In this document: piece after piece, positions 7,903 to 27,290 of the stretch | Position numbering within the stretch: position 1 is the first letter of the stretch | Layout: each line of letters starts with the position of its first letter | From: a virus | DNA length: 40,227 bases | Virus genome (UHGV): UHGV-0148877 | Direction: 5' to 3' (one strand) | Notes under the pieces: generated by a model | Seen by the model: only the letters and a program-made list of their open reading frames with translations | What the model was told of the DNA's origin: nothing | Database searches by the model: none | Position numbers and translations under genes: made by a program

Positions 7903-8754
7903 TCACTGTGCAGTTTTCGCTGATCGATTTTCAGCTCTAAATTCAAGAACCGTTTCAATATTTCTTTCCTTCAGCATATCAATAACATTTTTATTCATTT
8001 GACTATCACTGGTTAATAACTGGTAAACGTTGCTTCTCTCTTTATCAGAGTTTTCTTTAACAGCTGCTTTGCATGCCAAATGCTTATTGAAATTTTCTAC
8101 ATCGCTAGTACAGGAATTTACGGCTGCTGATGAAATATCAGACGCTGAAGAAACACCGTCATCCAAACGTTTTATAGCATTTTCTATACATGAGTTAAGG
8201 GAATAAACGACAACTGAGCGATACCCTTCAGACGCACACCATTCTAAATTTCTTGAAGGATCGAGTGGTTTTACTTCGCTGGATTGAATTAACTTGTCAA
8301 AAACTGACTTATATTCAATCTGTTTTTTATCTATAGCCCATACTTCAGTAGCTGATTTATAATTCCCCGTATGCCTATTAACATCAAATCCATGTTTTAT
8401 AAGCAAATCTGCCCATGAAAGATTTATTGATTCATTGTTATGAGGCCATTTTCCTGTCAGAACCGCCCCCATAGACCCCATATATCCGCCATATGATGGT
8501 ATAGCACCATGGCTCAGTAACTTCTCTGCAACCACAGGGCAATTAATTACATAAGAGGCGTAAAGCCCATTCCATAAAGCCCCTCTATAGTAATCGCCAC
8601 GATTAGGTTCTTTTAAGTCGATAGCCTTTGATAATTGTTCGCACGTTTTGCATGCATCAAAGTTATCCTTATTGCATTGCAATGAACTGGCAGCTGTAGG
8701 ATTTACAGAGACTATTGAAAGCACTATGCCAAAAAACAAATTTATTTTTTTCAT
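7903..8754 (-). CDS. Secreted Cys-containing protein of unknown function
   Basis: 283 aa; N-terminal signal peptide MKKINLFFGIVLSIVSVNPTAASS; about 8 Cys; strongly AT-rich relative to the structural genes; ATG 1 nt after the stop of the 1129-aa protein gene. Confidence 0.6.
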   Translation of the reverse strand: MKKINLFFGIVLSIVSVNPTAASSLQCNKDNFDACKTCEQLSKAIDLKEPNRGDYYRGALWNGLYASYVINCPVVAEKLLSHGAIPSYGGYMGSMGAVLTGKWPHNNESINLSWADLLIKHGFDVNRHTGNYKSATEVWAIDKKQIEYKSVFDKLIQSSEVKPLDPSRNLEWCASEGYRSVVVYSLNSCIENAIKRLDDGVSSASDISSAAVNSCTSDVENFNKHLACKAAVKENSDKERSNVYQLLTSDSQMNKNVIDMLKERNIETVLEFRAENRSAKTAQ

Positions 8755-8755
8755 C

Positions 8756-11700
8756 CTATTTCATCTGCTCTTCAACTTTATTTAGTAATGGTGATATCGC
8801 CCACAGATTCTGAAAAGGTAGCATTTTACGGACAGCGTGGGTTTGCTGGCTGTCAAATTCTCCGTTAAGTACACCATTTGCAACCGTCGCGGCATCACCG
8901 CCAAGATCAAAGGTAGGACCAAGTAAAGCACCAATAGCATTACGACTCTGAAACCTTGATACCGGAGGCGCACCAAACATCGCGCCAAGACCAAACCTAC
9001 CGCCGCTTATGTTCTCAACGGTATTCAGCGGCTCAGAGAGCCAGCCAAGCATTCCGCCCCGGTCGATCCCCTCTTTCACAAGGTTATTCCAGCTGTAGTC
9101 GATATCGCGACCGCTTAACTTCTGTTTCATCATATAGACCATTGAGCCAAGCGCAATCGTGCCAAGCGCACCAAGATAGAATGCAGCATCGCCCTGCTGG
9201 ATACCAGATACCAGCACCCTGTTATGCTGTGCGAAGATAAACGTTTTGAACTGCGTGATCATCTTCCAGCCTTCTTTACTAAAAAACAGCGGTGTATCAC
9301 CTACGCCAGGCGTTACAATCACTGAGTCTACATCTTTCAGCACTGCAGACTGGAAAATCTCTCTAGCGAAACGGTCATCCCACAGATGACTATGCCCGGT
9401 TAACAGCCCGTCCATATCCTCTCCGTGCTTCCCGAATTGCTCCCCGATTCGGCGCAGAACATCTTCATTGATGCCGACCTGTGCCATCTTCCGCATTTCA
9501 CTTTTGGAGAGCGTGCCACCAGCAGAAACTTGGCGAGCCGCGTCAAGTATCCTCGACTGCACTATCATCCCAGACCATGATTTAAGTGCGCTGTTCCACT
9601 GATTCATCAGCGTCCAGTTACCGAATTTCTGCGTCATCCAGTTCAGACCTCGCTCAGCGGCGCTTCTCCGGCTATAGGGGTCAGTAAGATCCGCTATAGC
9701 CTTTGTACGCGTAGACAGGACATAATCAAGCCCAACTGCCATTTCTCGCAAATCCCTGGTTGCAATTTTCACTGAGTCCATATTTTTAAGCATGCTTACC
9801 ATTGGTCCGAGAGATTTTCTCAGGCCATGCTGCATCATCGGTCGCATCAGATCAGTTGCAGCGGAGACAGTCATTCCACCAAGCAAACGGAGGAAGTTAA
9901 TATTCCTAGCAACTCGCCCGGCACGAACAAAGAAACTGCGTGGATCTTGAGGTGCACCGTAAGTACCAAGCAGTCGATCACGCATAGCCGTAATATCCCT
10001 AATATCAGCCTCCCGTTGCTTCTCAAGAACTGCACGTCGTTTAGGTGTTTTAGCCTCTTTTATTAGCCGGGTATATTCCTCACTAACCTGACGGATTTGC
10101 TCCCCCATATCTTTACGGCCAAACTGCGCAGTCAGCTCAATTTCTGGTGCCACCTGCCGGAGATAACTTTCCATGATGTAGTTAACATCTGATTCAAGAA
10201 AATCTTCTATACGCTCATCAGGAATAAGCAGCGTTCTGCTTTTAGTGAAACCAGCCCGACCAACGAGTCTCTCTGGGATAATATCGGCTGGTACAAGCCC
10301 GGAAGGTGCGCCTATTATTTTATTCACGATCTCGTCAGCAGCGTCCTCTGCTTCCTCTCGGGATAGAGGCTCCATCTGCTTCAGTGCTCGCTCGCGGCTT
10401 GCATTCAGCCTTGTGGTTGAATTTGCCCGTTTTTGCAGTCGGCGAAGCTCAGAACGATATTTCCGTGGATTATCCAGCAACTCCATATGGCGCTGATAGA
10501 CAGGAAGCTCACTCTTTGCCTGCGCTATATCATCAAGGCGTGTTTTAAGGTCAGAGCTTTCTTTCATCATTCTTGCCTGAAGTTTTTCTGATGAAGTCTC
10601 GGCCAACTCTTTTTCTATTCTTGTAAGACGCGCCTGTGTGTCAGTCTCCTGAGATATAAGCTTATTTCGTTTATCCAGTTCTTCCATGAGTAGAATTTTT
10701 TTACCAGACCATTTCTCCGCTTCAGCGATTTCACTAGCGAGAGCATCAGCGCGCGGTGCTGATTCCTCTGCAGTTTTTAGCAATGAATTTATCTTTTCAA
10801 TTCGCTGACCTGCTTTGTCAGCACCTTTGGCACTAATCACTTGTATCCAGTTGGCAATTCGCCCTCTGAATTCAGTGCGGTCGGAAAGTATCTTATCGAA
10901 CTTATAAATGCGGGGAAGATAACTCTTCGCCGTCACGACATCGATATCCTCAGGAAGGATCCCCAATTCCTGCATACGGGCTTTTGTGGTCTCAAAAATG
11001 GGGCGGATTCTGGCGGCTGCTTGTGAAACCTCAGGAATATCACTCTGATCACCACGGCGCATAGCCATGCCAACAGCTTCATTGAAATCAATAAAGTTCA
11101 TCCTCTTCACGCCGCGGGCGCTGACAGATTTGCTGTACTGCTGGTAAGCATCACGAGTAGCTTCCATCTGCTTATAAAGCATGGCGTCGTATTGCTTAAT
11201 CTTAGTCTCGACTGCCGTAAACGTAGCCAACCCCTCATCATTTTTGGCGAAGAAATAGTTATTTTCGGCAAGCTGCTGGTTAATCTGACGGGAGACAAGA
11301 GATGGTGATTGCGCCAAGCGGCCAGCAGGAGTGACACTCAACGTTTTGTTAGCAAGTCCAAGTCCAGCGAGCTGTTCCTGATCGAGTGTGGTATTGAAAA
11401 CCTGAGCTGCACCAATGCTTTGAGGAGAATCCATACCTCGCAAATGATTACCTACTGAGTTAACCACTGCCTCGCGCGCGCTAGGTCCAGCAAGTAGCTG
11501 TGCACCAGCACCAAGGATCCCACCAACGAGAGCATCAACAACAACGTTCGATACGCTCTCCATCGGTGAGCGAGCTTCCTGAGTGGCCTGTAATGCGGCT
11601 TCTGATACTCCCCCACCAGCAGCATTCGCCAGGGCAAAACGCCCTGCCGTCTCAGCAATACTTCCTCCACGCGCTACCGCCCCTACAGGGATGAACATTG

Positions 11701-12145
11701 CAGCCACATTAACCGGGTCTATCATTCCCATTGCTAAGCTTGAAATAGTACCAGCACCACCCATTTCAGATAGATATTCTCTATCTGTTCTTTGCTTATC
11801 GATTCGATGTTTAATTGCCATTGTTTCTTCATGCGAACCGGAGTTGATAAACGAATCTGCAAAATCTTCATAGCCTTTAATATCTGCTGCATCGTTATCA
11901 AATGGGTTATATCCTTCAACCCTGTCAAACTGACTGAAAGGAGCACTGGCAATAAAGCTACCCAGCGTGTTATCTATACGAAATGCTGCTTGTCTAGACC
12001 TTTGAACGCGTTGATCACTGGTAAATGGGTTCACAGCAGAAAGCAAAGAAGGTGTTTCCATATAGAAATTACTGTCATCAGGTGCTGCTATTTGCTGAAT
12101 ATCCTCGCCAAGCAACTCTTTAGGATCCTGTTCATATATCGGCAT
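8756..12145 (-). CDS. Large internal virion / ejection protein
   Basis: 1129 aa, largest of three consecutive big proteins after the tail-tube genes, the arrangement used for podovirus internal core (ejection) proteins; long coiled-coil-like central region. Confidence 0.65.
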   Translation of the reverse strand: MPIYEQDPKELLGEDIQQIAAPDDSNFYMETPSLLSAVNPFTSDQRVQRSRQAAFRIDNTLGSFIASAPFSQFDRVEGYNPFDNDAADIKGYEDFADSFINSGSHEETMAIKHRIDKQRTDREYLSEMGGAGTISSLAMGMIDPVNVAAMFIPVGAVARGGSIAETAGRFALANAAGGGVSEAALQATQEARSPMESVSNVVVDALVGGILGAGAQLLAGPSAREAVVNSVGNHLRGMDSPQSIGAAQVFNTTLDQEQLAGLGLANKTLSVTPAGRLAQSPSLVSRQINQQLAENNYFFAKNDEGLATFTAVETKIKQYDAMLYKQMEATRDAYQQYSKSVSARGVKRMNFIDFNEAVGMAMRRGDQSDIPEVSQAAARIRPIFETTKARMQELGILPEDIDVVTAKSYLPRIYKFDKILSDRTEFRGRIANWIQVISAKGADKAGQRIEKINSLLKTAEESAPRADALASEIAEAEKWSGKKILLMEELDKRNKLISQETDTQARLTRIEKELAETSSEKLQARMMKESSDLKTRLDDIAQAKSELPVYQRHMELLDNPRKYRSELRRLQKRANSTTRLNASRERALKQMEPLSREEAEDAADEIVNKIIGAPSGLVPADIIPERLVGRAGFTKSRTLLIPDERIEDFLESDVNYIMESYLRQVAPEIELTAQFGRKDMGEQIRQVSEEYTRLIKEAKTPKRRAVLEKQREADIRDITAMRDRLLGTYGAPQDPRSFFVRAGRVARNINFLRLLGGMTVSAATDLMRPMMQHGLRKSLGPMVSMLKNMDSVKIATRDLREMAVGLDYVLSTRTKAIADLTDPYSRRSAAERGLNWMTQKFGNWTLMNQWNSALKSWSGMIVQSRILDAARQVSAGGTLSKSEMRKMAQVGINEDVLRRIGEQFGKHGEDMDGLLTGHSHLWDDRFAREIFQSAVLKDVDSVIVTPGVGDTPLFFSKEGWKMITQFKTFIFAQHNRVLVSGIQQGDAAFYLGALGTIALGSMVYMMKQKLSGRDIDYSWNNLVKEGIDRGGMLGWLSEPLNTVENISGGRFGLGAMFGAPPVSRFQSRNAIGALLGPTFDLGGDAATVANGVLNGEFDSQQTHAVRKMLPFQNLWAISPLLNKVEEQMK

Positions 12146-14892
12146 TATTTGCCCCCTGCGTATATATTGCTCGGAAGGTAATTGGCTGAACCATAACCGA
12201 ATGGTTTGGTCAGATCTGGAGGAGTATATCCATCTTTATTGCTGAACTGCGGCAGCGGATTGCCTTCTCTCCGCACTCTAGCCTCATCAACACGCTGTTG
12301 CTGGAACTGAATGGTTTGCCTGTACATTGGAGATGTCAGCTGATCCGGCTTGAAACGAACAGGGAGACCATTTTCTCCAATATAATTTCTCGGTTCTATC
12401 GCTCCGTTTGCGTCAGGCTGTAAAACCATAACAGCATAACTCCTATCCCTTGCCGTAAGGCCATCAGAAACAAGTATTAAGTCCGTATCACTGCGAGGAC
12501 CGCCAAAGGATTTTGATTTAAGCTCGCGTTTTTCCTGCTCCCACTGCCCCTGTATCCAGTTACCAGCACCATTATTTACTCCGTACAATGCCTCAGGTGC
12601 ATACTTCATAACCTCTGCTTTGCCATTAACTGTAGAAACTCCCCAGGTGGTTCTGATCATGGCATTGGTCATTTTCTCAGCCTGTTCTGCATCGCCACCT
12701 GTCTGTACAAAGTTAGCATCGTAAATTGTCTGGTAATCTCGCTGATAGGCCGCATTTGATTTTCCTGGATCGGTAATATCCGGAGACCACGAACCAAAGG
12801 AAGTCAGACTGCTGGCGTTATTTTGTGCAGCAGTTGCCCTCGCCGCGACATATTTTTTGTCTCGCATGGCAGTGGAAAGCATCTGTTTCATTCGGTCATC
12901 CTGTTGGAACACCTGGCTGTAAGCCATATCAACAGCCTTATCCTCCGGCACGCCAGCGCGGGAATAATCGTAAACCTTGCCGTAAAATGCCATCGTACTT
13001 TTATCAAGTGTTGCCGCTGCCGCCGGATTATTATCGAATAACTGACCGTAGAATTTTGCCATCGGGACAACCAGCGCAGGATCTCTTGATGTTGCTCCAC
13101 TGTTAAGCATTGTTTTAACCTGAGTTGGTATCATGCCGCTTTTAGTTGTGGCGGTGACCAGTGTATTGATGCTCTGCGGATCAGATATGGAAAACGAAGG
13201 CGCGATATCCTGCGCGAAATAACGGTCTACCGCTGCCTGATTGTTTTTGTCGTTAGGGTCCAGCGGGAAGTTATTTTGCATTGAAGACACGAACCTGTTT
13301 CTTCCCTGCTGAATCTCCCACTCCCTATCCATCTCTTTAAATTTGGCCTGCATTTTCTCCCAGCGTTGCTGGTTAGCTGCAAATCCAGGAGCATTTGGAT
13401 CCTGTGGACGTAAACGTTCAAGAATGTCTTGTCGTCCTTCTGGAGTGAGGTCTTTAGCGGCACCAATGACACCTCCATATTGTATCTGCGCCTGCATATC
13501 CTTCCACTTCATAGCGCCAATGCGCGGACCATTGGCCCGGATAAAATCGTCCTCAGAAGGTAACTTCTCAGGTTTCAATCCTTCATCAAGGGCTGAATAT
13601 GCATCTTTAACTACGGTGCTAAGCTGGTCCGCATACTGCTGGCGGTACTGATTTCTCAGCTCATTAGCCTGCCTCAATGCCTGTATTTGCATTTGAGGGC
13701 TCATAGCGTCAAATGCCGCATTGCCCGTATAACGCTTAGGTGAATCAAGGTTAGTTAGACCAAGGGCTGCCGAGATACCAGTTTCAAGCTGTTCGGTGCT
13801 ATAAGGCATACTGCCATTTTCGTGTTTAATAATCCCAGCACATAAAGCAGCTAGTGTCTTTGGGTTAGAGATATCAAGCTGATCATTCTCCCCAACACCA
13901 AGCTCACTACACAATGCCCTAATATAAGCATCAGTATTATTACCATCACTAGCCGGAGCATAGCGATTAACAATCTCGCTAACGGTGTCATAGCCTTGAC
14001 GCTGGTAAGACAACATATTTTTACCCAACGCGCGGATTCCATGCTCAGGGGTAGCAAACGTTGCAAAACGTCCATCGCTACCGATCTGACCTTCCCACGG
14101 GTTAGATTTGCTCGCTTCAATATTACCAGGGTTATTATTACGTAAACCACGAGCATCCAATGAATTACCATGTGATATTGCACGACTCACACCATCAAGA
14201 TCCCCTGGCTCTCCATTAACCTGAAGAAACTCGTTGTATTTTTGAGCGATATTTCCTATCCATGCTTGCTGCCCCATTTGTTCCTTGAGCTGAGTTTTCT
14301 GCTGAACACGCCACTCATCAGGAAGCCCATGCGCATCAGCGTATTGATCAATAGATTCAAATCGCTGCTTGGCTAAATCGACAAATGCTTGGTTATCGCT
14401 ATATAGCCCCGCAGACTGAGTGACAGCCAATGCATTTCCTGACAAATACGTTTGATCTTGGAATTGCTGAAACTGCCCAACTTCATATCGACGTGCCTGA
14501 TTGTAATAAGACTGCATAGACTGCTGGAGTTGAAAGGATAATTTATTCCTTTCCTCACTTTCAGGAATTGAGCCTAATAATGCCTGAGCCCTTTCCTGCA
14601 TATTTTTCATAACAGCGTCACTCTGACCAAGAGCGTTTTTACCCTGTTTAGAAATCAGCCCATTTTCAGGGTTGTTAATCTGGTCATCTGCAAATTGGTT
14701 AAATTGCAGTAACGCCTCCTGGGCCATAGCAACATTCGCTTTCTGCCTAGCTTCACCATATGCCACCGCATACTGATCTGCGACATTCGCCAGCACCTGA
14801 CCTGCTTGAGGAACATCGAAGGTCTGAAAACCACCGGTTTGCACACCACGACTTTGCACCTGGCGTCCGGATGTAGTAGGAACAACAGGCAT
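12145..14892 (-). CDS. Internal virion protein with putative peptidoglycan-hydrolase domain
   Basis: 915 aa; contains GLRNNNPGNIEASKSNPWEGQ...FATFATPEHGIRALGKNML, recalled as a virion-associated muralytic-domain signature; start overlaps the downstream gene stop. Confidence 0.65.
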   Translation of the reverse strand: MPVVPTTSGRQVQSRGVQTGGFQTFDVPQAGQVLANVADQYAVAYGEARQKANVAMAQEALLQFNQFADDQINNPENGLISKQGKNALGQSDAVMKNMQERAQALLGSIPESEERNKLSFQLQQSMQSYYNQARRYEVGQFQQFQDQTYLSGNALAVTQSAGLYSDNQAFVDLAKQRFESIDQYADAHGLPDEWRVQQKTQLKEQMGQQAWIGNIAQKYNEFLQVNGEPGDLDGVSRAISHGNSLDARGLRNNNPGNIEASKSNPWEGQIGSDGRFATFATPEHGIRALGKNMLSYQRQGYDTVSEIVNRYAPASDGNNTDAYIRALCSELGVGENDQLDISNPKTLAALCAGIIKHENGSMPYSTEQLETGISAALGLTNLDSPKRYTGNAAFDAMSPQMQIQALRQANELRNQYRQQYADQLSTVVKDAYSALDEGLKPEKLPSEDDFIRANGPRIGAMKWKDMQAQIQYGGVIGAAKDLTPEGRQDILERLRPQDPNAPGFAANQQRWEKMQAKFKEMDREWEIQQGRNRFVSSMQNNFPLDPNDKNNQAAVDRYFAQDIAPSFSISDPQSINTLVTATTKSGMIPTQVKTMLNSGATSRDPALVVPMAKFYGQLFDNNPAAAATLDKSTMAFYGKVYDYSRAGVPEDKAVDMAYSQVFQQDDRMKQMLSTAMRDKKYVAARATAAQNNASSLTSFGSWSPDITDPGKSNAAYQRDYQTIYDANFVQTGGDAEQAEKMTNAMIRTTWGVSTVNGKAEVMKYAPEALYGVNNGAGNWIQGQWEQEKRELKSKSFGGPRSDTDLILVSDGLTARDRSYAVMVLQPDANGAIEPRNYIGENGLPVRFKPDQLTSPMYRQTIQFQQQRVDEARVRREGNPLPQFSNKDGYTPPDLTKPFGYGSANYLPSNIYAGGK

Positions 14893-15467
14893 CAGTAACC
14901 TCCTATTTTGAATCGGGAGTCAGAATTCATAAAACCTGAGTTAGATAACATTGGCGTCCCACCACTAGATGTACTTCCTTTAGAGAACGGACTCCACGTC
15001 CCACCAAACATCTGGTACGCACCGTATGCCTTCAGAGGCGCAGTGAGCAATGTTGTTGCTGCTCCCACATTCCCCTGTTTACGGGCTGAACTGGCTTCTG
15101 CTTTATAGTTGGCAGCCTGAACCTGATAACCGTAAGCCTCGCGTTGCGCGTTATTCACCGTCGTCAGAGAATCAAGAGCGCCAAACTGGGCAGTGTCGCC
15201 AAATATATCCAGCGCGTTACCTGTAGATAAATCAGCGCCGGTAGCCCCCATTGTCGCCGCCTGTGTACCAAGCCGCTGTCGGGTCTCTCTGCGCCGTTGC
15301 TCAGCTTCAGCGTTACCTCTGTTTATTGCATCATTTGCCTGAGCAGTGGCTATATCTGCGTTCGCTTCTGCAACCTTCGAGGCATACTTTCCCTGTTGGT
15401 ACTGGGTGTATGCCTGAATGCCACTCATGGCGAGCATTGCGCCACCAGCAATAACCGGATCGCACAT
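14892..15467 (-). CDS. Internal virion protein (small core protein)
   Basis: 191 aa, Ala/Gly/Gln-rich; position between tail-tube gene and the large ejection proteins. Confidence 0.5.
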   Translation of the reverse strand: MCDPVIAGGAMLAMSGIQAYTQYQQGKYASKVAEANADIATAQANDAINRGNAEAEQRRRETRQRLGTQAATMGATGADLSTGNALDIFGDTAQFGALDSLTTVNNAQREAYGYQVQAANYKAEASSARKQGNVGAATTLLTAPLKAYGAYQMFGGTWSPFSKGSTSSGGTPMLSNSGFMNSDSRFKIGGY

Positions 15468-15931
15468 TATTTTCTCTCCATGTGAAATCTGTGGAAATTA
15501 AGACCAAGAGCACCATAAGGCGCGGCCTCTTCAAGCCTGAATCCAAGCCAGTGCAGCCATGCTTTGGCAACATGGTTTCGCTCGTCGACGTAGTTTTCCA
15601 GGCGCGGATAAATTGCCAGCATCTGCTGCAATACCGGGCGGCAGTGGCGCAGAAATGTCTTCTGATATTTTTCAATACGGCTTGTCCCGACCAGCCATGG
15701 CGTACCATTGCCACCGATCATTGACGCCGGAGATACACCAAACATGGTTACCAGTTCTCCGTTCGCAAATCCTGACCAGGCCATAGTCGCAGTGCGCAGA
15801 CCAACACGCAGCGCATCTTCGGTAGTCATCAGCGATACCGCATACAGTTCGTCAATATCAGCCTGACGAACATCCGGCAAAATCATCTGAAGATGCTCTT
15901 CGGTTGCGGGAATAATTTGAACATCGATCAT
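15467..15931 (-). CDS. Hypothetical virion-module protein
   Basis: 154 aa ORF tightly packed (overlapping start/stop) within the structural operon; no family recognised. Confidence 0.45.
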   Translation of the reverse strand: MIDVQIIPATEEHLQMILPDVRQADIDELYAVSLMTTEDALRVGLRTATMAWSGFANGELVTMFGVSPASMIGGNGTPWLVGTSRIEKYQKTFLRHCRPVLQQMLAIYPRLENYVDERNHVAKAWLHWLGFRLEEAAPYGALGLNFHRFHMERK

Positions 15932-18396
15932 CAGAATCCCCCAACAGTAAGGCGAGGAATAACGGCAAGAACAGACAGCGGCAACGGATCAAGCTGACGG
16001 ATTTTTACACGCCCGTTTTTGCCCCAGTTACTGTCCAGTTTCACTTCTACTTTTCCGGTAGCATCATCAACAGGATCATCGTAGAACTCGAATTCACGCT
16101 GTGGATATTCGTACCATTTACCGCCGGGCGTAGTCGCCCAGATGCCGCGACTGGCATTCACAACCAGAGTAACGGAGGGGATCACCTGTTTTTTGTCCAG
16201 CAGCGTTTCCTGTCCGTTAATGTTGATATCCAGTGTTTCGAATTCAGCAGTTATTGGCAGGCCGATGTGCACTACAGCCCCCGGAGATTCCAGCGTGACG
16301 GCACCTCCGGAAACCACTTTCTGTGGTTCCACGTTCGCATCAGAGAGAATGTTTACGGTCTGGCCTTCAAGATGAGACAGGCCTCCAAATGTCCGGCGCG
16401 CCATCTGCCAGTTCGTGGTGGCCACATTCCTGAGGGATGGCGGGACGTTCCTGTTAGCACGAACCACTACAGCGGTATTACTGGTTACAGAAATAATGTC
16501 GCAACGTAATTCTTTTGACACCTCATCGCCAGTATCAGGTCCGGTATAAGGGAACTGTAGTTGCGCGCCGACATCACTACTGGTGAAGTACGCACCACCA
16601 GAAACACTGATTGTATATTCCGCGCGGTAATCCCATTCGCCAGAACCACCAGTGATGATCATCGTTCTGTCAGACGTATTTCTTCCATCATAGCTAAGGC
16701 CAGAATCAACAAAGAAAGCATCTTCATCGCTGGTAAATAAACGGCTGGACAGTCGCTCGATGTATCTCACTGTTTGCCCGTTAACGGTTCGGTTAACGAC
16801 GAAATACACCGCATCTTCATTGCCTTCGCTGATACTGCATGTGCTTTCATATTTTCCGGTACTGGATTGTGGTGCCCATGCAAAAACCTGCTGATCACGC
16901 AAATAGGTCATCACCAGTAATTTACCGTCATCACGAATGCAGAAGGCACTGGAGTAAGGGACAATCGAGAAGCACCAGTCAACAATGCTGTGCTTCTGAA
17001 AAAGATGATTGGCAAGGATGGTCAGGTCGTTCCCCTGATAGCCGTCAACATCGAATGAGTAGGCCAGATCACGGACAATGCTGCCTTTCTCCTGGACGAA
17101 CAGAGCAATATTCGCCACGGCAATTGGCGGGACGTTGCTTGAGCCATTTGATCCCTGAGAGCTGAATGCAAATGATGATGGGGTTAACACTTTGTTCTGG
17201 TCGCCGGTGATGACGTACTCACCTCCGGAAGTCAGCGCCACCAGAGAACCAACATCAATCAGGTGGCGGATCTCATTAACCTGACGTCCGGCATAGGTGT
17301 AGATAATTCTGTCGTCATCCTGCGTAGGATTGCTTTTGCCAAAATCCTTATAATCCCCGGTACGGCTGGCCCAGATAGTCTGAGGAAACGCAGTCGATGC
17401 GGCGAAGTAAAGACGTTGTTGATAATAAACAACAGTGCCAGGATAACCATTAACACTGTTCCAGGCATATTTAGCCCATTTATAGCTGGCATTATCCTCG
17501 CCAACGACCTGCGAAGGGATATAGGAAATCACCTCGGCAGTTGCAGTAGTTCCATTTGCAGCAGTGATACGGGCAATGCCAAAACCACTGTGCAGATATT
17601 CCCACTCAATGCCAGTATCATCATCACCGGATCCGCCCCAGCCATCCCATGATGTGCCTTCTGTATGCGAAGGGCGCAAAGTACCTGTTTTGCCTGCTGT
17701 AACGGCGCGATAGTAGTTACTGTCTGCACGGCGAATATCGCCAATCGACGTACTCTTACTGGTTTCCCATACCGGCACAGAATCCACTGCAGGCTGTTCC
17801 AGATAGAACAATTTGCCTACCTGCTCCGCGCCAAAAATAGAGGCGCTTGCCGTTAACGTAATTGTCCCGGTGCTGGCGCTGGCATAAACCGTCACTGACT
17901 CGTCAATATTGATATCTTCAAATGGCCCGTTCTTCGTTACCACATCAACCAGTTGCCAGTTGTCATGAGCATATCGGCGCAACTCTTTCGGCGGGTATGC
18001 CGGGTGAACCAGCGTAAGCACGTCGGCGCTTTGCGTGAATTTAATTCGGAACAGATCGGCTTCAGTATATGGCGTGGCAATTTCATAAATAACATTGCTG
18101 CTGTTCAGCACCAACGCACCATCTTTGATAACGCGCATGTACTGGTGTCCGAACTCCAGAGCATAGGTCTGAACCGTCGAGAACTGGAACGGGATCAGGC
18201 GGCATTTCCGATTTGGGTATTTGGCGGCACCGACAAAACGCGTACCAGGTCGATTCTCAACGCCGCCATACTGCCGCACGATAAAGTTATCGCACTTGCG
18301 CAATGCCACCTGGTACTTCGCCATGTCAATACGCCCGTACAACGACGGTCCAATCTCACCACCGGCAAAGCTGGGCTGGATCCAACTGATAGCCAT
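15931..18396 (-). CDS. Tail tube / nozzle protein (tail tubular protein B-like)
   Basis: 821 aa, directly after the 202-aa adaptor-like gene, size and order as in podovirus tail tubular protein B; assignment by synteny. Confidence 0.55.
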   Translation of the reverse strand: MAISWIQPSFAGGEIGPSLYGRIDMAKYQVALRKCDNFIVRQYGGVENRPGTRFVGAAKYPNRKCRLIPFQFSTVQTYALEFGHQYMRVIKDGALVLNSSNVIYEIATPYTEADLFRIKFTQSADVLTLVHPAYPPKELRRYAHDNWQLVDVVTKNGPFEDINIDESVTVYASASTGTITLTASASIFGAEQVGKLFYLEQPAVDSVPVWETSKSTSIGDIRRADSNYYRAVTAGKTGTLRPSHTEGTSWDGWGGSGDDDTGIEWEYLHSGFGIARITAANGTTATAEVISYIPSQVVGEDNASYKWAKYAWNSVNGYPGTVVYYQQRLYFAASTAFPQTIWASRTGDYKDFGKSNPTQDDDRIIYTYAGRQVNEIRHLIDVGSLVALTSGGEYVITGDQNKVLTPSSFAFSSQGSNGSSNVPPIAVANIALFVQEKGSIVRDLAYSFDVDGYQGNDLTILANHLFQKHSIVDWCFSIVPYSSAFCIRDDGKLLVMTYLRDQQVFAWAPQSSTGKYESTCSISEGNEDAVYFVVNRTVNGQTVRYIERLSSRLFTSDEDAFFVDSGLSYDGRNTSDRTMIITGGSGEWDYRAEYTISVSGGAYFTSSDVGAQLQFPYTGPDTGDEVSKELRCDIISVTSNTAVVVRANRNVPPSLRNVATTNWQMARRTFGGLSHLEGQTVNILSDANVEPQKVVSGGAVTLESPGAVVHIGLPITAEFETLDININGQETLLDKKQVIPSVTLVVNASRGIWATTPGGKWYEYPQREFEFYDDPVDDATGKVEVKLDSNWGKNGRVKIRQLDPLPLSVLAVIPRLTVGGF

Positions 18397-19004
18397 CAGG
18401 ACAACCTCGCAATGGTAAACTCATCAACCGGTGGCTGTGGTTCCTGTGATTCATTCTGGCTATGCGAGCCAGCACTAAGAATCACGCGATTGTACATATT
18501 GAGGGCAAACGTACCGAGGTCTGCATTCCCAGTCAGCGCCATGTTAATGGCTGCCGCAAGACGCCAGGCCAACGCCTCCATAAAAATGGCATCAAACATG
18601 TTCACATCTGTAACGCGAGAGACATACTTGAGCCATGCCTGAGGCTGGTCTGTGTAGATCAACTTTCCTGTTCCGTTGGTGTCTGCACCAACTTCGTACT
18701 GAACGCGCATTGCTGCTGTTGGATTGCGTACACCAGGAAGCATAATTTCAGTAATGCGCAGACAATCTGACGGGTACTGGTACGCATATTCCCAGTCAGG
18801 CGGTGGATTGCTCGTATCTGCAAGCGCCACGCGTTTGGTAGCAAAGTTCCAGTCAAAATCAGAAAGCACAGCATCACGGCAGGCCTCAAAGTGCAGCGAA
18901 CATTCCCCCGCTTCCTTGCTGGCTTCCGTCAGGCTGTTAATGCTGCGGCTGTTGCCAATATTGGACAGCGCACGATTACAGATCTCTACTACAGAGGCCA
19001 TCAC
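18396..19004 (-). CDS. Head-tail adaptor / tail tubular protein A-like
   Basis: 202 aa; size and position match gp11-type tail tubular protein A. Confidence 0.5.
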   Translation of the reverse strand: MMASVVEICNRALSNIGNSRSINSLTEASKEAGECSLHFEACRDAVLSDFDWNFATKRVALADTSNPPPDWEYAYQYPSDCLRITEIMLPGVRNPTAAMRVQYEVGADTNGTGKLIYTDQPQAWLKYVSRVTDVNMFDAIFMEALAWRLAAAINMALTGNADLGTFALNMYNRVILSAGSHSQNESQEPQPPVDEFTIARLS

Positions 19005-19330
19005 TCACCTCCGTTACCGTACAGAGTTTCAGCCGCTGATTTTTCTACATCCCCGGAAACAGGAGCGATCGCCATATCAGTGATCTGCAGATCGGCGCTG
19101 CGATTAACACCATCGTCAGTTTCTCTGGCAGACAGGCCTCGAATAACAGCCTTTGCAGTTATCATCACTTCTGTTCCGACGCCCTGAGGTTGCGCCTTCA
19201 GCTTATTCAATGTGTCGTTATTAAGAGTGATGCACAGCCCCCACGGGTATTCATCGCGAGTTCTGGTTTCTCCGCTCTCATCCTGGTAGCTGTCAGTGCC
19301 GGTTTTGAGGTTTACGAGTTCCATATACAC
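19001..19330 (-). CDS. Small head-associated structural protein (possible decoration/staple)
   Basis: 109 aa ORF in the capsid-to-tail gene block; function by position only. Confidence 0.4.
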   Translation of the reverse strand: MYMELVNLKTGTDSYQDESGETRTRDEYPWGLCITLNNDTLNKLKAQPQGVGTEVMITAKAVIRGLSARETDDGVNRSADLQITDMAIAPVSGDVEKSAAETLYGNGGE

Positions 19331-19374
19331 TCCTGCAATAAAGGGGCCGAAGCCCCTTGTCTGATCCGCGAGGC

Positions 19375-19719
19375 TTACACGCCCAGTTCTTTACGCTTAT
19401 CTGCGATCTTCTCGCGGAGCGTTTCGGCTTTGGCGTTATGGTGTGGCTTCTCGTTAAAGAGCAATTCGTACTCTTCACGGAGCTTATCCAGTTCACCATC
19501 ATCTGACACATCGTTGATGATTTTGGTGCTGGTTGCTGCCATTGACACCTTTCCTGCAACTTTTGCTTTTGCCTGTCTGGCTGCATCGTTAACAGGTTCC
19601 AGTGCGCTACCAGGCTCACCTTCGTATTCGATTTCTGCCCCCTCCGGCCACAGAGTGTTATGGATATGAGAGAGGCGCAGAACGCGGTATCTTGGTTTCT
19701 CACCTGACATCGATATCAC
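19375..19719 (-). CDS. Hypothetical structural-module protein
   Basis: 114 aa ORF immediately downstream of the 145-aa gene; no motif recognised. Confidence 0.4.
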   Translation of the reverse strand: MISMSGEKPRYRVLRLSHIHNTLWPEGAEIEYEGEPGSALEPVNDAARQAKAKVAGKVSMAATSTKIINDVSDDGELDKLREEYELLFNEKPHHNAKAETLREKIADKRKELGV

Positions 19720-19720
19720 C

Positions 19721-20158
19721 TTAACCAGTTACTTTTGAGCGGATCGGATACGGCGTATTGGCATCAACATCAAGACTGATACCAGCAGTGAATTCGCCAG
19801 CCGTTAGTGGGCCAGTTGCGACGGAGTAGTTAACACGCAGATATCGCTGAACACCGGCAGGCACCTTTGCAGAAACAACTCGTTTACCTGCTGTCAGGGC
19901 GGTCTTTGCCAGTGCGCCACTATCATAAATAGTGGTCCATGAGCTGTTATCCTCACTCGTCTGCAACTGGATGTTTACAGTTGCATCACCGCTTGCCGCG
20001 GCGGCTGTGTTAACCAGCGCCCAAAACTCAAGCGGGTAACCCACGCCGATATCACGACGTTTTCCGTCAATTGGACCGAGATCGATTACGTCAGTAGAAG
20101 CCGCGGTATTCGTAACCGCCTGAGCTTCGGAGAACATCAACAGTTTGTCGGTGATCAT
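19721..20158 (-). CDS. Putative capsid decoration / structural protein
   Basis: 145 aa, Ala/Thr/Gly-rich beta-type composition, directly downstream of the major capsid gene. Confidence 0.45.
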   Translation of the reverse strand: MITDKLLMFSEAQAVTNTAASTDVIDLGPIDGKRRDIGVGYPLEFWALVNTAAAASGDATVNIQLQTSEDNSSWTTIYDSGALAKTALTAGKRVVSAKVPAGVQRYLRVNYSVATGPLTAGEFTAGISLDVDANTPYPIRSKVTG

Positions 20159-20209
20159 CTTCTTTCTCCATTAGTGGGTCTGTTACGACCCACAGGTTAA
20201 TAACAGGCG

Positions 20210-21196
20210 TTACACCACGCGGGCTTCTGTTTCCAGAAGCGCATCAGTTTCACGGATTGGTACACCACGGAATGAAGTCCACCACTCGCCTTCAGTCTCT
20301 TTTACGCTGATAGCCAGAGATGTTTTCTCCAGAGATTGCAGATCAAGAGCCTGGCCTACAGTGCGGTTCATGTAGAACACCGGGCGGCCCATGCCACGGT
20401 TTGGAATGCGATGCAGTGCTTTAACCATCAACTTCGCAATATTTGCGGCAGAGGAAGGTTCTGAAAGATTGCTGACATTGATGTTTGCAATGCGAACAAC
20501 ATAACGCCAGTCACGCAGAGCAAGTCCGTTATCCCATTTGTAATGGGTGCGATAGCCTTCGTACTTGCCGCCATTAGCATCTTCCAGTGTCACCTGGCCT
20601 TTATCTTCCATCTGGATGCCAGCCTTCTGCCCTTTCGGGAAGATGCCATGCACGGTGTTTTCGCCCCACACCACTAACCAGATTGAGGTGTTATCTGTAC
20701 CCGTGCCACCAGCATCAATGATGTTCTGAGCATTACCCGCAGACAGGCTGGAATAGCGGGAGGACAATCCCATAAACTGCTGAGGGTTAACGCTGGAATC
20801 ACCATAAAACAACGTCTGCGCCATCTGCTGATTCATCGCTTCAATAAATGCGCGGTCTTCAGACAGGCGGAATTCGGCGGTATTACCGTTCAGATCAGCC
20901 AGTGACTTATCGACTTCAGCATAGGTTTCCAACATGCCAACGGAATCGGTGACCTGCACTGTGGTTGATTTGCTTGGTTGTACGCCATAGTTCAACAAAC
21001 GCCAGGTAGCTGAAGGTAAACCAGAACGAATGGTGGTTCGGTGTCCGGTAGGAAGGTTCCCTTCGACAAAAGGCATATCCTGAAGGATCGGGTTAGTTTG
21101 ACCGAGAAGCTCGATAATCTTATCGACTTTCCCGTTTGGATCGACGCGCTTACCCCAGTCAGCCAGCGTTAGCGCAGTTAAGCCTTTAACAGCCAT
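20210..21196 (-). CDS. Major capsid protein
   Basis: 328 aa; immediately follows the scaffolding gene; composition and size consistent with an HK97-fold podovirus coat protein. Confidence 0.8.
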   Translation of the reverse strand: MAVKGLTALTLADWGKRVDPNGKVDKIIELLGQTNPILQDMPFVEGNLPTGHRTTIRSGLPSATWRLLNYGVQPSKSTTVQVTDSVGMLETYAEVDKSLADLNGNTAEFRLSEDRAFIEAMNQQMAQTLFYGDSSVNPQQFMGLSSRYSSLSAGNAQNIIDAGGTGTDNTSIWLVVWGENTVHGIFPKGQKAGIQMEDKGQVTLEDANGGKYEGYRTHYKWDNGLALRDWRYVVRIANINVSNLSEPSSAANIAKLMVKALHRIPNRGMGRPVFYMNRTVGQALDLQSLEKTSLAISVKETEGEWWTSFRGVPIRETDALLETEARVV

Positions 21197-21210
21197 TGTT
21201 ATTTCCTCTC

Positions 21211-21906
21211 TTATTTGCCATAGAGCACTTCGGCCGCACTACGCTGGCCTTCATTACCACCGGTGACCATGCCATCTTCAGACATAGCCTTTCCGATTTT
21301 CACAAACGTTTTGACCAGATCAGGGTGATTACCCAGCCCGGTGGTGTTCAGATATTCTTTGAGTTCAGGTGTCCCGAACTGGTCAAGCGCACGCTGTGCG
21401 GCGCTAAGGTTAGAAATCAACTTGTCGCCACCGATTTCTTTGTCAGCTTTTACATCCGCAGCCCACTGCTCGGTTGTTTTCTGCCAGGCTTCTGCCTGGC
21501 GCTGCTGAACACCTGCCAGAATCTTCGGATAAGCATCAACCAGCTTTTGCGCTTGCTCGTTGGTCAGGTTAAGTTCTCGCGCCACCGGCTCGAATTCCTT
21601 CAACGCTTCTGTATCCAGCTCTACGCCTTCGGCAGCCTGAAACTCGTACTTCTCAGGCGCACCCTCTGGTTTATCGCCGTCCTTTTTTTCATCCTGCTTA
21701 TCGTTTTCAGGCTTTTTGTCATCAGCAGGTTTATCGCCATCAGCAACAGGTTGTGGCTTATCACCTTCATGTTGTGATGGATCACCAACTGGAGCAGGGT
21801 TATCACCTGCAGGCGCTGACGGTTCTGACGCAGCCGGAGCTGCTCCACCATCGACTGGTTGCTCATTGCAAAGACGGTAGTTAATTAAAGAATCAAATAA
21901 ACTCAC
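21211..21906 (-). CDS. Scaffolding protein
   Basis: 231 aa; acidic, Pro/Asp/Lys-rich low-complexity N-terminal half and helical C-terminal half; sits between portal and capsid genes. Confidence 0.65.
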   Translation of the reverse strand: MSLFDSLINYRLCNEQPVDGGAAPAASEPSAPAGDNPAPVGDPSQHEGDKPQPVADGDKPADDKKPENDKQDEKKDGDKPEGAPEKYEFQAAEGVELDTEALKEFEPVARELNLTNEQAQKLVDAYPKILAGVQQRQAEAWQKTTEQWAADVKADKEIGGDKLISNLSAAQRALDQFGTPELKEYLNTTGLGNHPDLVKTFVKIGKAMSEDGMVTGGNEGQRSAAEVLYGK

Positions 21907-21917
21907 GATCTTTCCCC

Positions 21918-22205
21918 TTAAGCCATAATCCCGGCTGCCTTTAACTTGGCCAGCAGAGAATTAAAATCAGCAACGACTCCACTAACATCGCTCGCGACAG
22001 AATTAGCTTGTGTTGCAGCTTTCTTGACGCCACCTATAACTGATTCAGTTGCCGCAGGCGGCGTAAATGTTTCAGGCTTTTCCTGAATATCACTCCAGGA
22101 AACAGAAGCATCATCACCAATGACACTTACTTCAGCGATGGTGCTGTCTCCATCAAGCCTGATCGGTCTAATTTTATTTAAAGACATTTGCCTACCTCTG
22201 TTCAC
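21918..22205 (-). CDS. Hypothetical head-module protein
   Basis: 95 aa ORF between portal and scaffold genes. Confidence 0.4.
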   Translation of the reverse strand: MNRGRQMSLNKIRPIRLDGDSTIAEVSVIGDDASVSWSDIQEKPETFTPPAATESVIGGVKKAATQANSVASDVSGVVADFNSLLAKLKAAGIMA

Positions 22206-22488
22206 TGGCCTCTTTGGCCATCTTTAAATACTGTTCAGGGCAATGCGCCATAACGCGCTGAAACAGTTCCAGCGCCAGATTGCGTTGCCCCTCATTAAAT
22301 GCCATAGCCATAGCGTCCATCGGTGAGATAGCAGAAAACACACGGCCTTTCTCCAGCACCGACCAGACAACGCGACGCCCCTGTTCACTGCTCATGACAA
22401 AGCGAATGTCATCAATTTCACGCTGTGCCATGTCACGTTGCTTACGGGCGTTTTCTTCTTTCAGTTGATCGTCTTCGTAATCTGTCAT
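22192..22488 (-). CDS. Hypothetical head-module protein
   Basis: 98 aa ORF whose start overlaps the portal stop. Confidence 0.4.
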   Translation of the reverse strand: MTDYEDDQLKEENARKQRDMAQREIDDIRFVMSSEQGRRVVWSVLEKGRVFSAISPMDAMAMAFNEGQRNLALELFQRVMAHCPEQYLKMAKEASEQR

Positions 22489-24164
22489 TGTGATTGCCCA
22501 CCCTGACCACTAACTGCATTCGCCATAGCTGACAAAACACTCGGATCCGAAGTTTTAGCTTCGCTTAGCGTCTTGGCACCCTGTGCCGCCGCCATCCCCA
22601 TCGCCATCATTTGTTGCTGCTGTTGTTGCTGTGCCCGTTGCTGGCGAGCCTGCTCAACCTGTTCCTGCGGAACAATGACGGTTGGAGACACTCCGGACAT
22701 ATCAGCGAATGCATCGATCGCCTGATCAACGTTGAGTTTGTCGAGAGCTTCTGGTTTCGCTTGCGCAAGTTGACCAATGAAGTTGACCGTGGATGCCAGA
22801 CTGGACAGGCCGATAGACTTCTGCGCCTGAGCCATGACGGAAATGTATTCGACCTTCAGGGGCATACCTTCCATCGCGTCAGGCGGTGGCGGCAGCATGT
22901 TTTTACGCACCATCATCGAGAAAGCGCGGTCAATGAGAGGATTAAGACATTCGTCGTTCAGACGCTCCAGAACCGGCCCCAACATCAGAAGTTTTTCTTC
23001 TTTCATTTCGATCACCGCTTCAACAGGCATCGAGCGGGTATTGATGTTCTGCAACATCATGAACAGATCGACAAAGTAGGCGCTGTTAATGATTTGGCGA
23101 GTGTCCTGAATGTCTGCCACCAGATCTGCTGTACTGGGGTTAACCAGATAAGCAGGCCTGAAACCATCCTGACCAGTAATCTGATCGATATACGTGATGT
23201 CGCCAGGAAGAAGGGAGGCGCGCTGATTCTTGAGGGAAGTCGGAGCAACCATCGGCGGATTGGTGGCTTTATCAATCAACTGCGACTTGCGCTTCTGGAG
23301 AAGCTGCAATGCCTTAACAGGTCCAAGCGCCAGCATACCCGGGCATGATGATCCATAAACATCTTCGCCATTAACTTCCCAGCGCGGAGCCATAATTGGA
23401 AACTCATCGAATCCGGACTCACGCAACAACTTGTCGTTATCGCCACCAACCTCGTAATAAACCGATTTGAATGGCTTGTTCTTGCTATCCAGCTTCGATG
23501 TATCGCGGTCAATGTTCGGGTAAACCGAATGCATCACTTCGATCCACTTCTCGTAGGTGCCGCTTTCCCACATGCTTTTTACGGATTCGCTGACGTTATT
23601 TAGCCCGAACTCCTGAACAAGCTGACGAACAGTCATAGAGAACTTGCGAAAACAGGTGTCAACACTGCCACGAGGTGAGTTAGCCAGGTAGTAACTGCCT
23701 ATCGGGAATGGCATTGTGCGAATGATGTCCTCGTCATCCTCCAGCACTGCCATTGCACCGGTGCTGTATGTGCCGAGGCTTCCGTATAACTGCGGAAGAG
23801 ACTGGTAGAGATTCGACTTATTGAACATATCGTTCATGCGGTTCTGCACCGCCTCAAGCCACAACTTAACAGGGCCATAATCCATCATTTCAGGATCTGG
23901 CGTAGCCAGGCGAAACCACGGACGCGCGGGGCTTGTGATGCCTGACATCATGCCGCTGGCGAGAGTGCGCGCCGCCATAGTCCCGGTCGAATCAATAATA
24001 CGTGTATTGCGTCGATCGTTACGGTTGACCTCAGAAGTCAGAAAGCGGGAACCACGCGGGTTGATGTAATCACTCAACTCGCGCCAGTGCGGCTCGAACG
24101 ACTGACGCTCGCTTTCAAGTTGTGCGAACTGTTTGTTCAATCGCTCTTTAGTTGTTTCCGCCAT
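22485..24164 (-). CDS. Portal protein
   Basis: 559 aa; placed after TerL; C-terminal poly-Gln/Ala tail (QARQQRAQQQQQQQMMAMGMAAAQGA). Confidence 0.8.
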   Translation of the reverse strand: MAETTKERLNKQFAQLESERQSFEPHWRELSDYINPRGSRFLTSEVNRNDRRNTRIIDSTGTMAARTLASGMMSGITSPARPWFRLATPDPEMMDYGPVKLWLEAVQNRMNDMFNKSNLYQSLPQLYGSLGTYSTGAMAVLEDDEDIIRTMPFPIGSYYLANSPRGSVDTCFRKFSMTVRQLVQEFGLNNVSESVKSMWESGTYEKWIEVMHSVYPNIDRDTSKLDSKNKPFKSVYYEVGGDNDKLLRESGFDEFPIMAPRWEVNGEDVYGSSCPGMLALGPVKALQLLQKRKSQLIDKATNPPMVAPTSLKNQRASLLPGDITYIDQITGQDGFRPAYLVNPSTADLVADIQDTRQIINSAYFVDLFMMLQNINTRSMPVEAVIEMKEEKLLMLGPVLERLNDECLNPLIDRAFSMMVRKNMLPPPPDAMEGMPLKVEYISVMAQAQKSIGLSSLASTVNFIGQLAQAKPEALDKLNVDQAIDAFADMSGVSPTVIVPQEQVEQARQQRAQQQQQQQMMAMGMAAAQGAKTLSEAKTSDPSVLSAMANAVSGQGGQSQ

Positions 24165-24178: not shown

Positions 24179-24385
24179 TTACTGACCAAGTAGCGTTTTA
24201 CCGCTGGTATTAGCGGTTGATGTGTCGCCCTGAGAACCGGTAAGCAGCGTAGAACTACGACCAGCAGCAGCGCGACGGCGACGTGTTTCTTCGTCGCGGG
24301 CATCAACAACGGCGGCATCCTGCTCCTGTGGTGCTGCCTGAACTTCTGGTGTTGCAGGCACTGATGGTGAGCTACCCATGCACAT
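24179..24385 (-). CDS. Small low-complexity protein upstream of portal
   Basis: 68 aa, Ala/Arg/Pro/Thr-rich; ATG with GGAG RBS 9 nt upstream; ends 12 nt before the portal start. Confidence 0.3.
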   Translation of the reverse strand: MCMGSSPSVPATPEVQAAPQEQDAAVVDARDEETRRRRAAAGRSSTLLTGSQGDTSTANTSGKTLLGQ

Positions 24386-24812: not shown

Positions 24813-24889
24813 GTGGCATTAGCTCAGTTGGACAGAGCAACCGCCTTCTAAGCGGTTGGTCGCAGGTTCGAATCCTGCATGCCACGCCA
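24813..24889 (+). tRNA. tRNA-Arg (anticodon UCU)
   Basis: 77 nt folded by hand: 7-bp acceptor stem GTGGCAT/ATGCCAC, D stem GCTC/GAGC, anticodon stem ACCGC/GCGGT with loop CTTCTAA (anticodon TCT), T stem GCAGG/CCTGC with loop TTCGAAT, discriminator G, encoded CCA. Confidence 0.9.
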
Positions 24890-27274: not shown

Positions 27275-27290
27275 AACCACCGTGGTAATA

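Follow-up and report, generated by a model that had tools for sequence, protein, structure and literature searches.

The virion and DNA-delivery block of viral genome UHGV-0148877 as the probable morphogenesis module of a phiV10/epsilon15-type temperate phage

The viral genome UHGV-0148877 (40,227 nucleotides; the whole stretch of DNA analyzed, hereafter the window) carries a block of structural genes at positions 8756–24164, set beside the integrase, repressor, and replication genes of a temperate phage. This locus raises the question of what kind of virion the block builds and whether its union with such a backbone is unusual. An earlier sequence-only reading of the window proposed a short-tailed virion module within a lambdoid-style regulatory backbone and named homology searches and whole-genome comparison as ways of checking the proposal. 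We used Pfam, NCBIfam, PHROG, PDB, Rfam, and PADLOC for the family and structure searches. The results revealed that the structural proteins belong to epsilon15/BPP-1/T7-type families and that the whole window is collinear with Uetakevirus phages. Almost certainly, the block is the gene set by which a temperate, short-tailed phage of the phiV10/epsilon15 type (genus Uetakevirus), located adjacent to guaA in Escherichia coli, builds its virion and delivers its DNA.

The megablast comparisons identified close relatives along the whole block. Phage EC.W1-9 (PP445227) exhibited 97.8% DNA identity across 96% of the block, whereas phiV10, TL-2011b, ZX5, PAS61, phiv142-3, and the O157 typing phages 9 and 10 exhibited approximately 98% identity in the part from the portal gene to the gp14-like gene. 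Epsilon15 and other Salmonella, Enterobacter, and Klebsiella relatives were 75–82% identical to the block. Among 5,426 complete E. coli genomes, the block was matched in 564 (approximately one in ten) and at full length in 117, and almost all of these matches were chromosomal. The remainder of the window also matched the named phages, and the window as a whole was collinear with Uetakevirus phages, with 91–99% DNA identity across the aligned parts. In E. coli KOr019, this prophage is flanked by guaA and yfgI, and in E. coli 2013C-3033 it adjoins guaA. The ends of the window are formed by the integrase gene (38971–40227) and the Rz gene (1–483), and in the list of open reading frames (ORFs) the late genes run on the minus strand from approximately 27.3 kb down to 7.9 kb. 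Because the window spans exactly from integrase to Rz, it represents essentially the whole prophage in reverse orientation.

Gene-by-gene tblastn comparisons agreed with the DNA matches. From the terminase through a 154-amino-acid (aa) internal protein, aa identity to phiV10 was 95–100%, and the proteins from portal to nozzle were 95–99% identical to those of phiV10 and 36–88% identical to those of epsilon15. When the terminase, portal-to-nozzle, and lysis genes were taken together, with their order kept, identity was 81–100% to phiV10 and 36–94% to epsilon15. According to tblastn and the existing annotations, the window is collinear with epsilon15, phiV10, TL-2011b, and EC.W1-9 in its gene order: terminase, portal, capsid, adaptor, nozzle, core proteins, tailspike, and lysis, then the integrase and early genes.

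To place the window within the genus, we calculated intergenomic similarity with a blastn-based measure of our own, which gave 79% for EC.W1-9, 63% for phiV10, 58% for TL-2011b, and 33% for epsilon15. The genus guideline of the International Committee on Taxonomy of Viruses is approximately 70% nucleotide similarity over the genome. By this measure, the two classified Uetakevirus species, epsilon15 and phiV10, are only 38% similar to one another; therefore, the window is as close to phiV10 as classified members are to each other, although the formal threshold is not cleanly reached. In electron micrographs of phage ZX5, a Uetakevirus integrated at the guaA 3' end, the head measures 60 nm and the tail 15 nm (PMC9782041), and TL-2011b is counted among the Uetakevirus phages in the ZX5 and PAS61 papers (PMC9782041, PMC11522302). 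ZX5 is 98.5% DNA-identical to the window over 14986–24164 and so provides, in a relative, the morphological check proposed in the sequence-only reading; for the window itself, a short tail is predicted from the genes. We found no evidence contradicting the Uetakevirus-type assignment. The phage type is already known, being named, imaged, and common, and the element is an ordinary member of its group except for a few small and rare add-on genes.

A recent and unusual chimera, in which a lytic T7-like virion module was placed on a lambdoid prophage backbone, could be considered on the basis of the backbone genes. Family searches identified a tyrosine integrase with an Arm-binding domain, RecT, a PD-(D/E)XK exonuclease, and an MT-A70 methyltransferase, in agreement with the integrase and RecET-like recombination of the sequence-only reading. 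Its lambda-like O/P replication with iterons was correct in part. A lambda-P family protein (helicase loader) is encoded at 31665–32465 (PF06992, E = 1.5e-56), and iterons (four to six copies of approximately 18–24 nucleotides, 32859–33008) lie inside the initiator gene; however, the initiator matches DnaT DNA-binding and HTH_36 domains rather than the lambda O family. The predicted repressor is present as a 194-aa protein, but it is less lambda-like than had been implied: Pfam returned helix-turn-helix matches only, and a CI-type self-cleaving peptidase domain was not found. The lambda-P family protein, iterons, and RecT, together with the families that the virion block has in common with T7 (PF12236 portal, PF24072 gp14, and phrog_342), are what would favor a chimera. 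Nevertheless, the collinearity with Uetakevirus phages described above covers the backbone as well as the virion genes, and the same combination is found in epsilon15, phiV10, TL-2011b, EC.W1-9, and approximately 10% of complete E. coli genomes. The two halves have no clearly different nearest relatives, and the backbone, including an antirepressor module, is common to phiV10-type phages. A recent chimera is thus very improbable, and these comparisons indicate that the association of virion and backbone is old and standard, the normal architecture of a Uetakevirus.

The same comparisons bear on whether the element is a decayed prophage remnant that can no longer be induced. Prophages at guaA are common, and some of them will be defective. 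In this window, however, all the module genes are full-length and 94–100% identical to those of the plaque-forming EC.W1-9 and phiV10, and the phage retains an intact integrase, an intact repressor, and intact genes for replication, packaging, and lysis. We therefore consider a remnant unlikely.

With the Uetakevirus-type assignment in place, we examined the block gene by gene. The genes described in the sequence-only reading were all on the minus strand, at the places given and with strong family matches, but the span 8756–24164 did not contain the tailspike (2294–4483) or the terminase (25206–27352) genes, and two genes between the portal and scaffold genes (22192–22488 and 21918–22187) as well as the 154-aa internal protein had been missed. 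The late block begins with the terminase small subunit (26678–27352, minus strand, as are all virion genes below; PF03592, E = 1.4e-29; 99.6% aa identity to phiV10 gp01), followed by the large subunit (25206–26681; phrog_2, E = 6e-53; 99% to phiV10 and 94% to epsilon15). A 68-aa epsilon15 gp3-like protein (24179–24385; phrog_831, E = 2.4e-36; 100% to phiV10 and 88% to epsilon15 gp3) is encoded just upstream of the portal gene. The portal protein (22485–24164) belongs to the T7 gp8-type "head-to-tail connecting" family (PF12236, E = 1.6e-187; PDB 8ck0_A, E = 5.7e-179; 99% to phiV10 and 81% to epsilon15 gp4). The next gene (22192–22488) encodes a Bbp19-like small protein equivalent to epsilon15 gp5 (PF25181, E = 2.8e-17; 66% aa identity).

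The major capsid protein (20210–21196) is of the epsilon15 gp7/BPP-1 family with an HK97-like fold (PF20911, E = 8.6e-149; PDB 3j4u, E = 4.7e-128, and 3j40, E = 9.8e-85). It passed the NCBIfam equivalog NF045672 (MCP_gp7_epsi_15) with 411 bits against a cutoff of 75, and its aa identity to the epsilon15 protein was 43%. Downstream of the capsid gene lie a Bbp16-family capsid cement protein equivalent to epsilon15 gp8 (19721–20158; PF21190, E = 2.8e-47; so named by PGAP in KOr019), a 111-aa epsilon15 gp9-like protein (19375–19710; phrog_590, E = 3.5e-61), and a gp10-type capsid staple or decoration protein (19001–19330; PF21628, E = 1.2e-51; "capsid staple protein" in PGAP). The small head proteins had no NCBIfam match. 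The 111-aa frame is annotated at the equivalent place in phiV10 and KOr019 and is the real gene; an overlapping 136-aa ORF in another frame (19293–19703), with an isoelectric point (pI) of 11 and without a family match, was rejected.

We also observed a tRNA-Arg gene (anticodon UCU; 24813–24889, plus strand) that stands between the terminase genes and the portal gene and runs against the late operon, with a strong terminator-like hairpin beside it (24933–24968). This tRNA gene overlaps an 83-aa minus-strand ORF that is a "hypothetical protein" in phage records.

The tail genes follow the head genes. The adaptor (18396–19004), equivalent to T7 gp11 or tail tubular protein A, matched phrog_394 (E = 4.1e-87) and the "Connector Protein" chain PDB 8ck1_E (E = 3.9e-26) and was 85% identical to epsilon15 gp11. 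The nozzle (15931–18396), equivalent to T7 gp12 or tail tubular protein B, matched the "Tail Nozzle" chain PDB 8ck1_A (E = 3e-218) and was 88% identical to epsilon15 gp12. A search for literature on PDB 8cjz, 8ck0, and 8ck1 found nothing relevant; these entries, of which 8ck0 and 8ck1 hold portal, nozzle, connector, and tail-fibre chains of a solved relative, are cited here by their chain names. Beyond a 3.4-kb mixed-strand accessory region, the tailspike gene (2294–4483) encodes a conserved Uetakevirus N-terminal anchor and an exchangeable receptor-binding part. Residues 1–165 were 71.5% identical to epsilon15 gp20 and 68% identical to phiV10 gp25, residues 1–202 matched a PDB tailspike chain that also occurs in entry 8ck1 (E = 5.5e-32), and the anchor at the N-terminus is conserved across all Uetakeviruses (PMC11522302). 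The likeness to epsilon15 that the sequence-only reading had noted for the tailspike N-terminus and the endolysin was accurate, the endolysin being 83.7% identical in aa sequence.

The distal part of the tailspike has another nearest relative. Together with a downstream 98-aa ORF (2001–3658, minus strand; aligned DNA at 2038–3658), the distal tailspike gene shares 98% DNA identity with the JEP4 tailspike region; JEP4 is a Lederbergvirus, a phage of the P22-like type. This identity and a similar gene layout are the points in favor of a P22-like virion module. JEP4, however, shares only the receptor-binding part of the tailspike and the small downstream ORF, whereas epsilon15/BPP-1/T7-type families account for the portal, capsid, staple, adaptor, and nozzle, and neither the portal nor the capsid had a match to the P22 gp1 or gp5 family. 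A P22-like module is hardly credible on these findings. The distal tailspike looks like a recent exchange of a receptor-binding domain between phage groups.

The proteins that would leave the head during infection are encoded after the nozzle gene. The 154-aa internal virion protein (15467–15931) is the equivalent of epsilon15 gp13 (phrog_308, E = 6.6e-62; 62% aa identity), and the 191-aa protein (14892–15467) is a core or ejection protein of the T7 gp14 family (PF24072, E = 4.4e-8, 33.7 bits against a cutoff of 27; phrog_418), of which the first 170 residues were 95% identical to phiV10 gp17 and the C-terminus was different. The 915-aa protein (12145–14892) occupies the gp15 position, matched phrog_1044 over its full length, and contains a peptidoglycan-degrading domain. 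The 1129-aa protein (8756–12145) is of gp16 type and matched phrog_342, "internal virion protein with endolysin domain" (E = 2.5e-235). Its match covers profile positions 192–1227 of 1235, and because it starts only at position 192, the N-terminal lytic domain is absent. The 1129-aa protein has one hydrophobic segment (residues 201–220), was 98% identical to its EC.W1-9 counterpart and 32–42% identical to TL-2011b gp38, and had no PDB match. The three large internal proteins of the sequence-only reading (191, 915, and 1129 aa) are thus all present, although the first of them cannot be called large. NCBIfam gave no match for the adaptor, nozzle, core proteins, and tailspike, or for a 283-aa accessory protein discussed below.

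The muralytic-like domain that had been predicted in one of the ejection proteins was located in the 915-aa protein at residues 247–399 (window 13696–14154) by matches to PDB 9vvp_L (E = 4e-35) and 7q47, "Endolysin" (E = 2.8e-15), with the motif RNNNPGNI in the alignment. This domain bears directly on the question of whether the block is a long-tailed module whose tape measure, in the form of the 915- or 1129-aa protein, was overlooked. The 915-aa protein has a partial match to phrog_2276, "tail length tape measure protein" (E = 1.8e-29), the only such PHROG match in the window, but it spans residues 194–411 only and is limited to the muralytic domain, whereas the full-length matches are to internal virion protein families. 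Every ORF of at least 300 aa in the window was accounted for, and family searches found no tape measure, tube, sheath, baseplate, or tail-assembly chaperone gene among the window ORFs, as the sequence-only reading had maintained for the tape-measure and tube or sheath set. The relatives, moreover, have been imaged with short tails. A long-tailed module is scarcely conceivable, and the short-tailed type is well founded in the T7-type portal, the epsilon15 gp7-type capsid and gp10 staple, the adaptor, the nozzle, and a gp14/15/16-type core. As in the T7 ejectosome, a gp14-family protein precedes two large internal proteins, one of which carries a peptidoglycan hydrolase domain.

Several observations weigh against a phiV10/epsilon15-type module with T7-like delivery. 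Only the N-terminal approximately 500 residues of the 915-aa protein are related to phiV10 gp18 and epsilon15 gp15 (44–45% identity), and its C-terminal half has no detectable counterpart there. The 1129-aa protein had no tblastn match in phiV10 or epsilon15. For both proteins, we infer a T7-like mechanism via PHROG families only. Finally, databases name the 231-aa protein that we treat as scaffold-like a protease or peptidase. Epsilon15 gp16 and gp17, for their part, had no match in the window, and their PHROG families differ. The lack of epsilon15-type gp15, gp16, and gp17 does not disqualify the window from Uetakevirus because EC.W1-9 shares its cassette and TL-2011b has a third type.

These comparisons led to a view of the ejection genes as replaceable units. 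In phiV10 and epsilon15, three large proteins (PHROGs 992, 1145, and 684) follow the gp14-like protein; TL-2011b has two ejection proteins that are 29–42% identical to those of the window; and the 915- and 1129-aa pair is common to the window and EC.W1-9 and is also found in Klebsiella phages at approximately 81% DNA identity. The recombination boundary of the cassette lies near 14.7–15.0 kb, at the junction of the gp14-like and 915-aa genes, and the 1129-aa gene was detected in 120 of the 5,426 E. coli genomes. On sequence comparison, this phage group has at least three interchangeable ejection-protein cassettes, of which the 915/1129 pair is one.

The 231-aa protein (21211–21906) belongs to phrog_458 and had no Pfam, NCBIfam, or PDB match, and none of its 120 listed homologue clusters carried a Pfam domain. 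It is acidic (pI 4.5), with an N-terminal third that is acidic and rich in proline and charged residues. An AlphaFold model, built from a 25-sequence alignment in which all homologues were at least 79% identical to the query, was all-helical past residue 98 but of low confidence (mean predicted local distance difference test score, pLDDT, 45.9). The "protease" label originates, in the epsilon15 record, from similarity to a Salmonella "putative endoprotease". On the basis of its composition, the absence of a protease family match, and the low-confidence helical model, we agree with the sequence-only reading and assign the protein as a scaffold with moderate confidence; the assignment is not proven, and the "peptidase" label is probably wrong.

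Among the genes missed earlier, the 89-aa gene between the Bbp19-like and scaffold genes (21918–22187) is a rare insertion encoding a miniature head-fibre-like protein. Its product matched the C-terminal 52 positions of PF11133 (Phage_head_fibr, the phi29 head-fibre family; E = 1.5e-14; 54.5 bits, cutoff 24.6). Compared with phiV10, TL-2011b, and epsilon15, the gene is a clean, gene-sized insertion. Only 3 of the 5,426 complete E. coli genomes, including 2013C-3033, contained it, under the PGAP name "head fiber protein", and every Uetakevirus phage record examined lacked it; EC.W1-9 and KOr019 are without it. The nearest phage relatives of the protein (55–70% identity) are encoded beside the capsid genes of Mydovirus myoviruses. 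Species-representative genomes yielded 25 distant matches (36–73% over partial segments), mostly from Firmicutes, and none of the 25 was enterobacterial.

The last gene of the late operon (7903–8754) encodes the 283-aa accessory protein, which carries a hydrophobic, signal-peptide-like leader and eight invariant cysteines and appears to be secreted; the gene has 37% GC. The operon is closed by a terminator-like hairpin (7879–7896) with a seven-pair stem, six of the pairs G-C, followed by a T-run. In 106 of the 120 E. coli genomes carrying the 1129-aa gene, the 283-aa gene directly follows it, whereas the match in the remaining 14 extends no further than the 1129-aa gene; in one of these, which we inspected, other small genes occupy the slot. 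Homologues directly follow proteins of approximately 915 and 1130 aa in Klebsiella, Serratia, and Morganella prophages, with identity down to 40%. Only 22 sequence clusters were found in 5.8 billion, and all that named an organism were from Enterobacterales. The structural model (pLDDT 78.6) showed only weak, ankyrin-like similarity.

In P22, the ejection-protein genes adjoin sieA, whose product acts on gp16 and gp20, both ejection proteins (PMC10883804). Because of this precedent, we suggest, speculatively, that the 283-aa protein is a periplasmic superinfection-exclusion factor matched to the 915/1129 cassette, which might stop incoming phages equipped with this ejectosome, for example by binding its cell-wall-cutting domain. 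Such a factor would be a functional analogue of P22 SieA and T4 Spackle with a new fold and location. Separately, an epsilon15-type head may gain fibres of the phi29 type from the 89-aa gene. Taken jointly, these two proposals are doubtful, and we offer them as tentative ideas.

Other small genes lie in the accessory region and near the integrase. A Bro-N/Ant antirepressor ORF (5930–6769, plus strand) is located between the ejection genes and the tailspike. Rfam matched isrK (5853–5929, 74.2 bits) just before its coding region and a C4 antisense RNA (5948–6034, 79.5 bits) on the same strand, which suggests RNA control of the antirepressor in the style of P1 immI and Salmonella isrK; Ant itself probably starts downstream of the ATG listed at 5930. 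A YafO-like toxin ORF (7044–7616, plus strand) scored just under the Pfam cutoff for PF13957, and its homologue in KOr019 is annotated by PGAP as a YafO family toxin. Another gene (7685–7873, plus strand), for a small secreted or membrane protein, matched phrog_14503, of the category "moron". PADLOC matched no defence model in ten accessory or early proteins, a set that included the YafO-like ORF and left out the membrane protein at 7685–7873. A 242-aa protein (4960–5688, minus strand), also present in 2013C-3033, has an N-terminal hydrophobic segment and C-terminal cysteine-rich motifs weakly like those of endonuclease VII or Lar-like zinc-finger families (full-length match to phrog_6762; phrog_1035, E = 2.1e-11). 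Beside the integrase, a calcineurin-like metallophosphoesterase gene (38189–38968, plus strand; PF00149, E = 1.8e-15) has an equivalent in 2013C-3033 that PGAP names "serine/threonine protein phosphatase"; in phiV10 and TL-2011b, a DUF1382 gene takes its place.

The identities of the gene products come from homology, and for the working steps of the particle we infer from solved relatives the following scheme. The terminase would pack DNA via the T7-type portal into a gp7-type shell built around the acidic, helical 231-aa scaffold-like protein, and gp10 staples and Bbp16 cement would brace the shell as in epsilon15 (3j40) and BPP-1 (3j4u). In the rare variant, the shell may bear a small phi29-type head fibre. 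The adaptor ring and nozzle would close the portal and hold six tailspikes by their conserved N-terminal anchor, and the tailspikes would bind, and probably cut, O-antigen. After this binding, the 154-, 191-, 915-, and 1129-aa proteins would exit the head and form a trans-envelope channel, as in the T7 model, with the 915-aa protein supplying the cell-wall-cutting domain and the 1129-aa protein acting as a gp16-like component. The T7 ejection-protein model has a precedent for this division of labor in K1E and K1-5, in which the lytic domain is swapped from the gp16 to the gp15 homologues (PMC8954989).

As stated, the finding has little significance in itself, for it re-identifies a common, named, and imaged phage group. 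Its value lies in annotation: gene roles are fixed for a prophage present in approximately 10% of complete E. coli genomes, and a doubtful "peptidase" label is flagged. If it is true that the cassettes are linked to a secreted accessory protein, this linkage would provide a testable handle on self-exclusion by short-tailed temperate phages. The tailspike and head-fibre exchanges would further illustrate gene traffic between unrelated phage groups.

Among known systems, EC.W1-9 and the guaA-linked E. coli prophages (KOr019, 702/18, and 2013C-3033) are the most similar, with 97.8–99.1% DNA identity over 96–98% of the block, the same 191/915/1129/283 cassette at 98–100% aa identity, and an identical gene order throughout. 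EC.W1-9 differs in having no separate match for the gp10 staple and in its distal tailspike and some early genes. phiV10, ZX5, PAS61, and phiv142-3 share the terminase, portal, scaffold-like protein, capsid, cement, staple, adaptor, nozzle, and 154-aa protein at 95–100%, as well as the backbone, lysis cassette, and guaA integration. In phiV10, however, gp17 is followed by three ejection proteins (837, 600, and 824 aa) of other PHROG families, and the 915-aa protein is related to this set only in its N-terminal approximately 500 residues, at 45%. An O-acetyltransferase gene and another tailspike receptor-binding part further distinguish phiV10. Epsilon15, the type species of the group (capsid PDB 3j40), shares gene order and families but is more divergent, with its gp15/16/17 ejection set and serotype-conversion genes and without a lambda-P homologue.

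The more distant comparisons are with T7 and P22. Like T7, the window has a PF12236 portal, a gp14-family protein, a gp16-type phrog_342 protein, and the order adaptor, nozzle, and core proteins; in contrast to T7, the phage is temperate, has no RNA polymerase, and uses another capsid family, and its cell-wall-cutting domain is in the gp15-position protein rather than at the gp16 N-terminus, as is also the case in K1E and K1-5 (PMC8954989). The late layout resembles that of P22 in its ejection proteins, envelope-targeted accessory gene, antirepressor under small-RNA or repressor control, and tailspike, whereas the P22 virion proteins have no sequence relationship to those of the window. P22 SieA is a polytopic inner-membrane protein, whereas the 283-aa protein has a cleavable-looking leader and conserved cysteines. 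In the control of its antirepressor, the window resembles P1 C4 and Salmonella isrK rather than the Mnt/Arc system of P22, although the position of the module recalls P22 immI.

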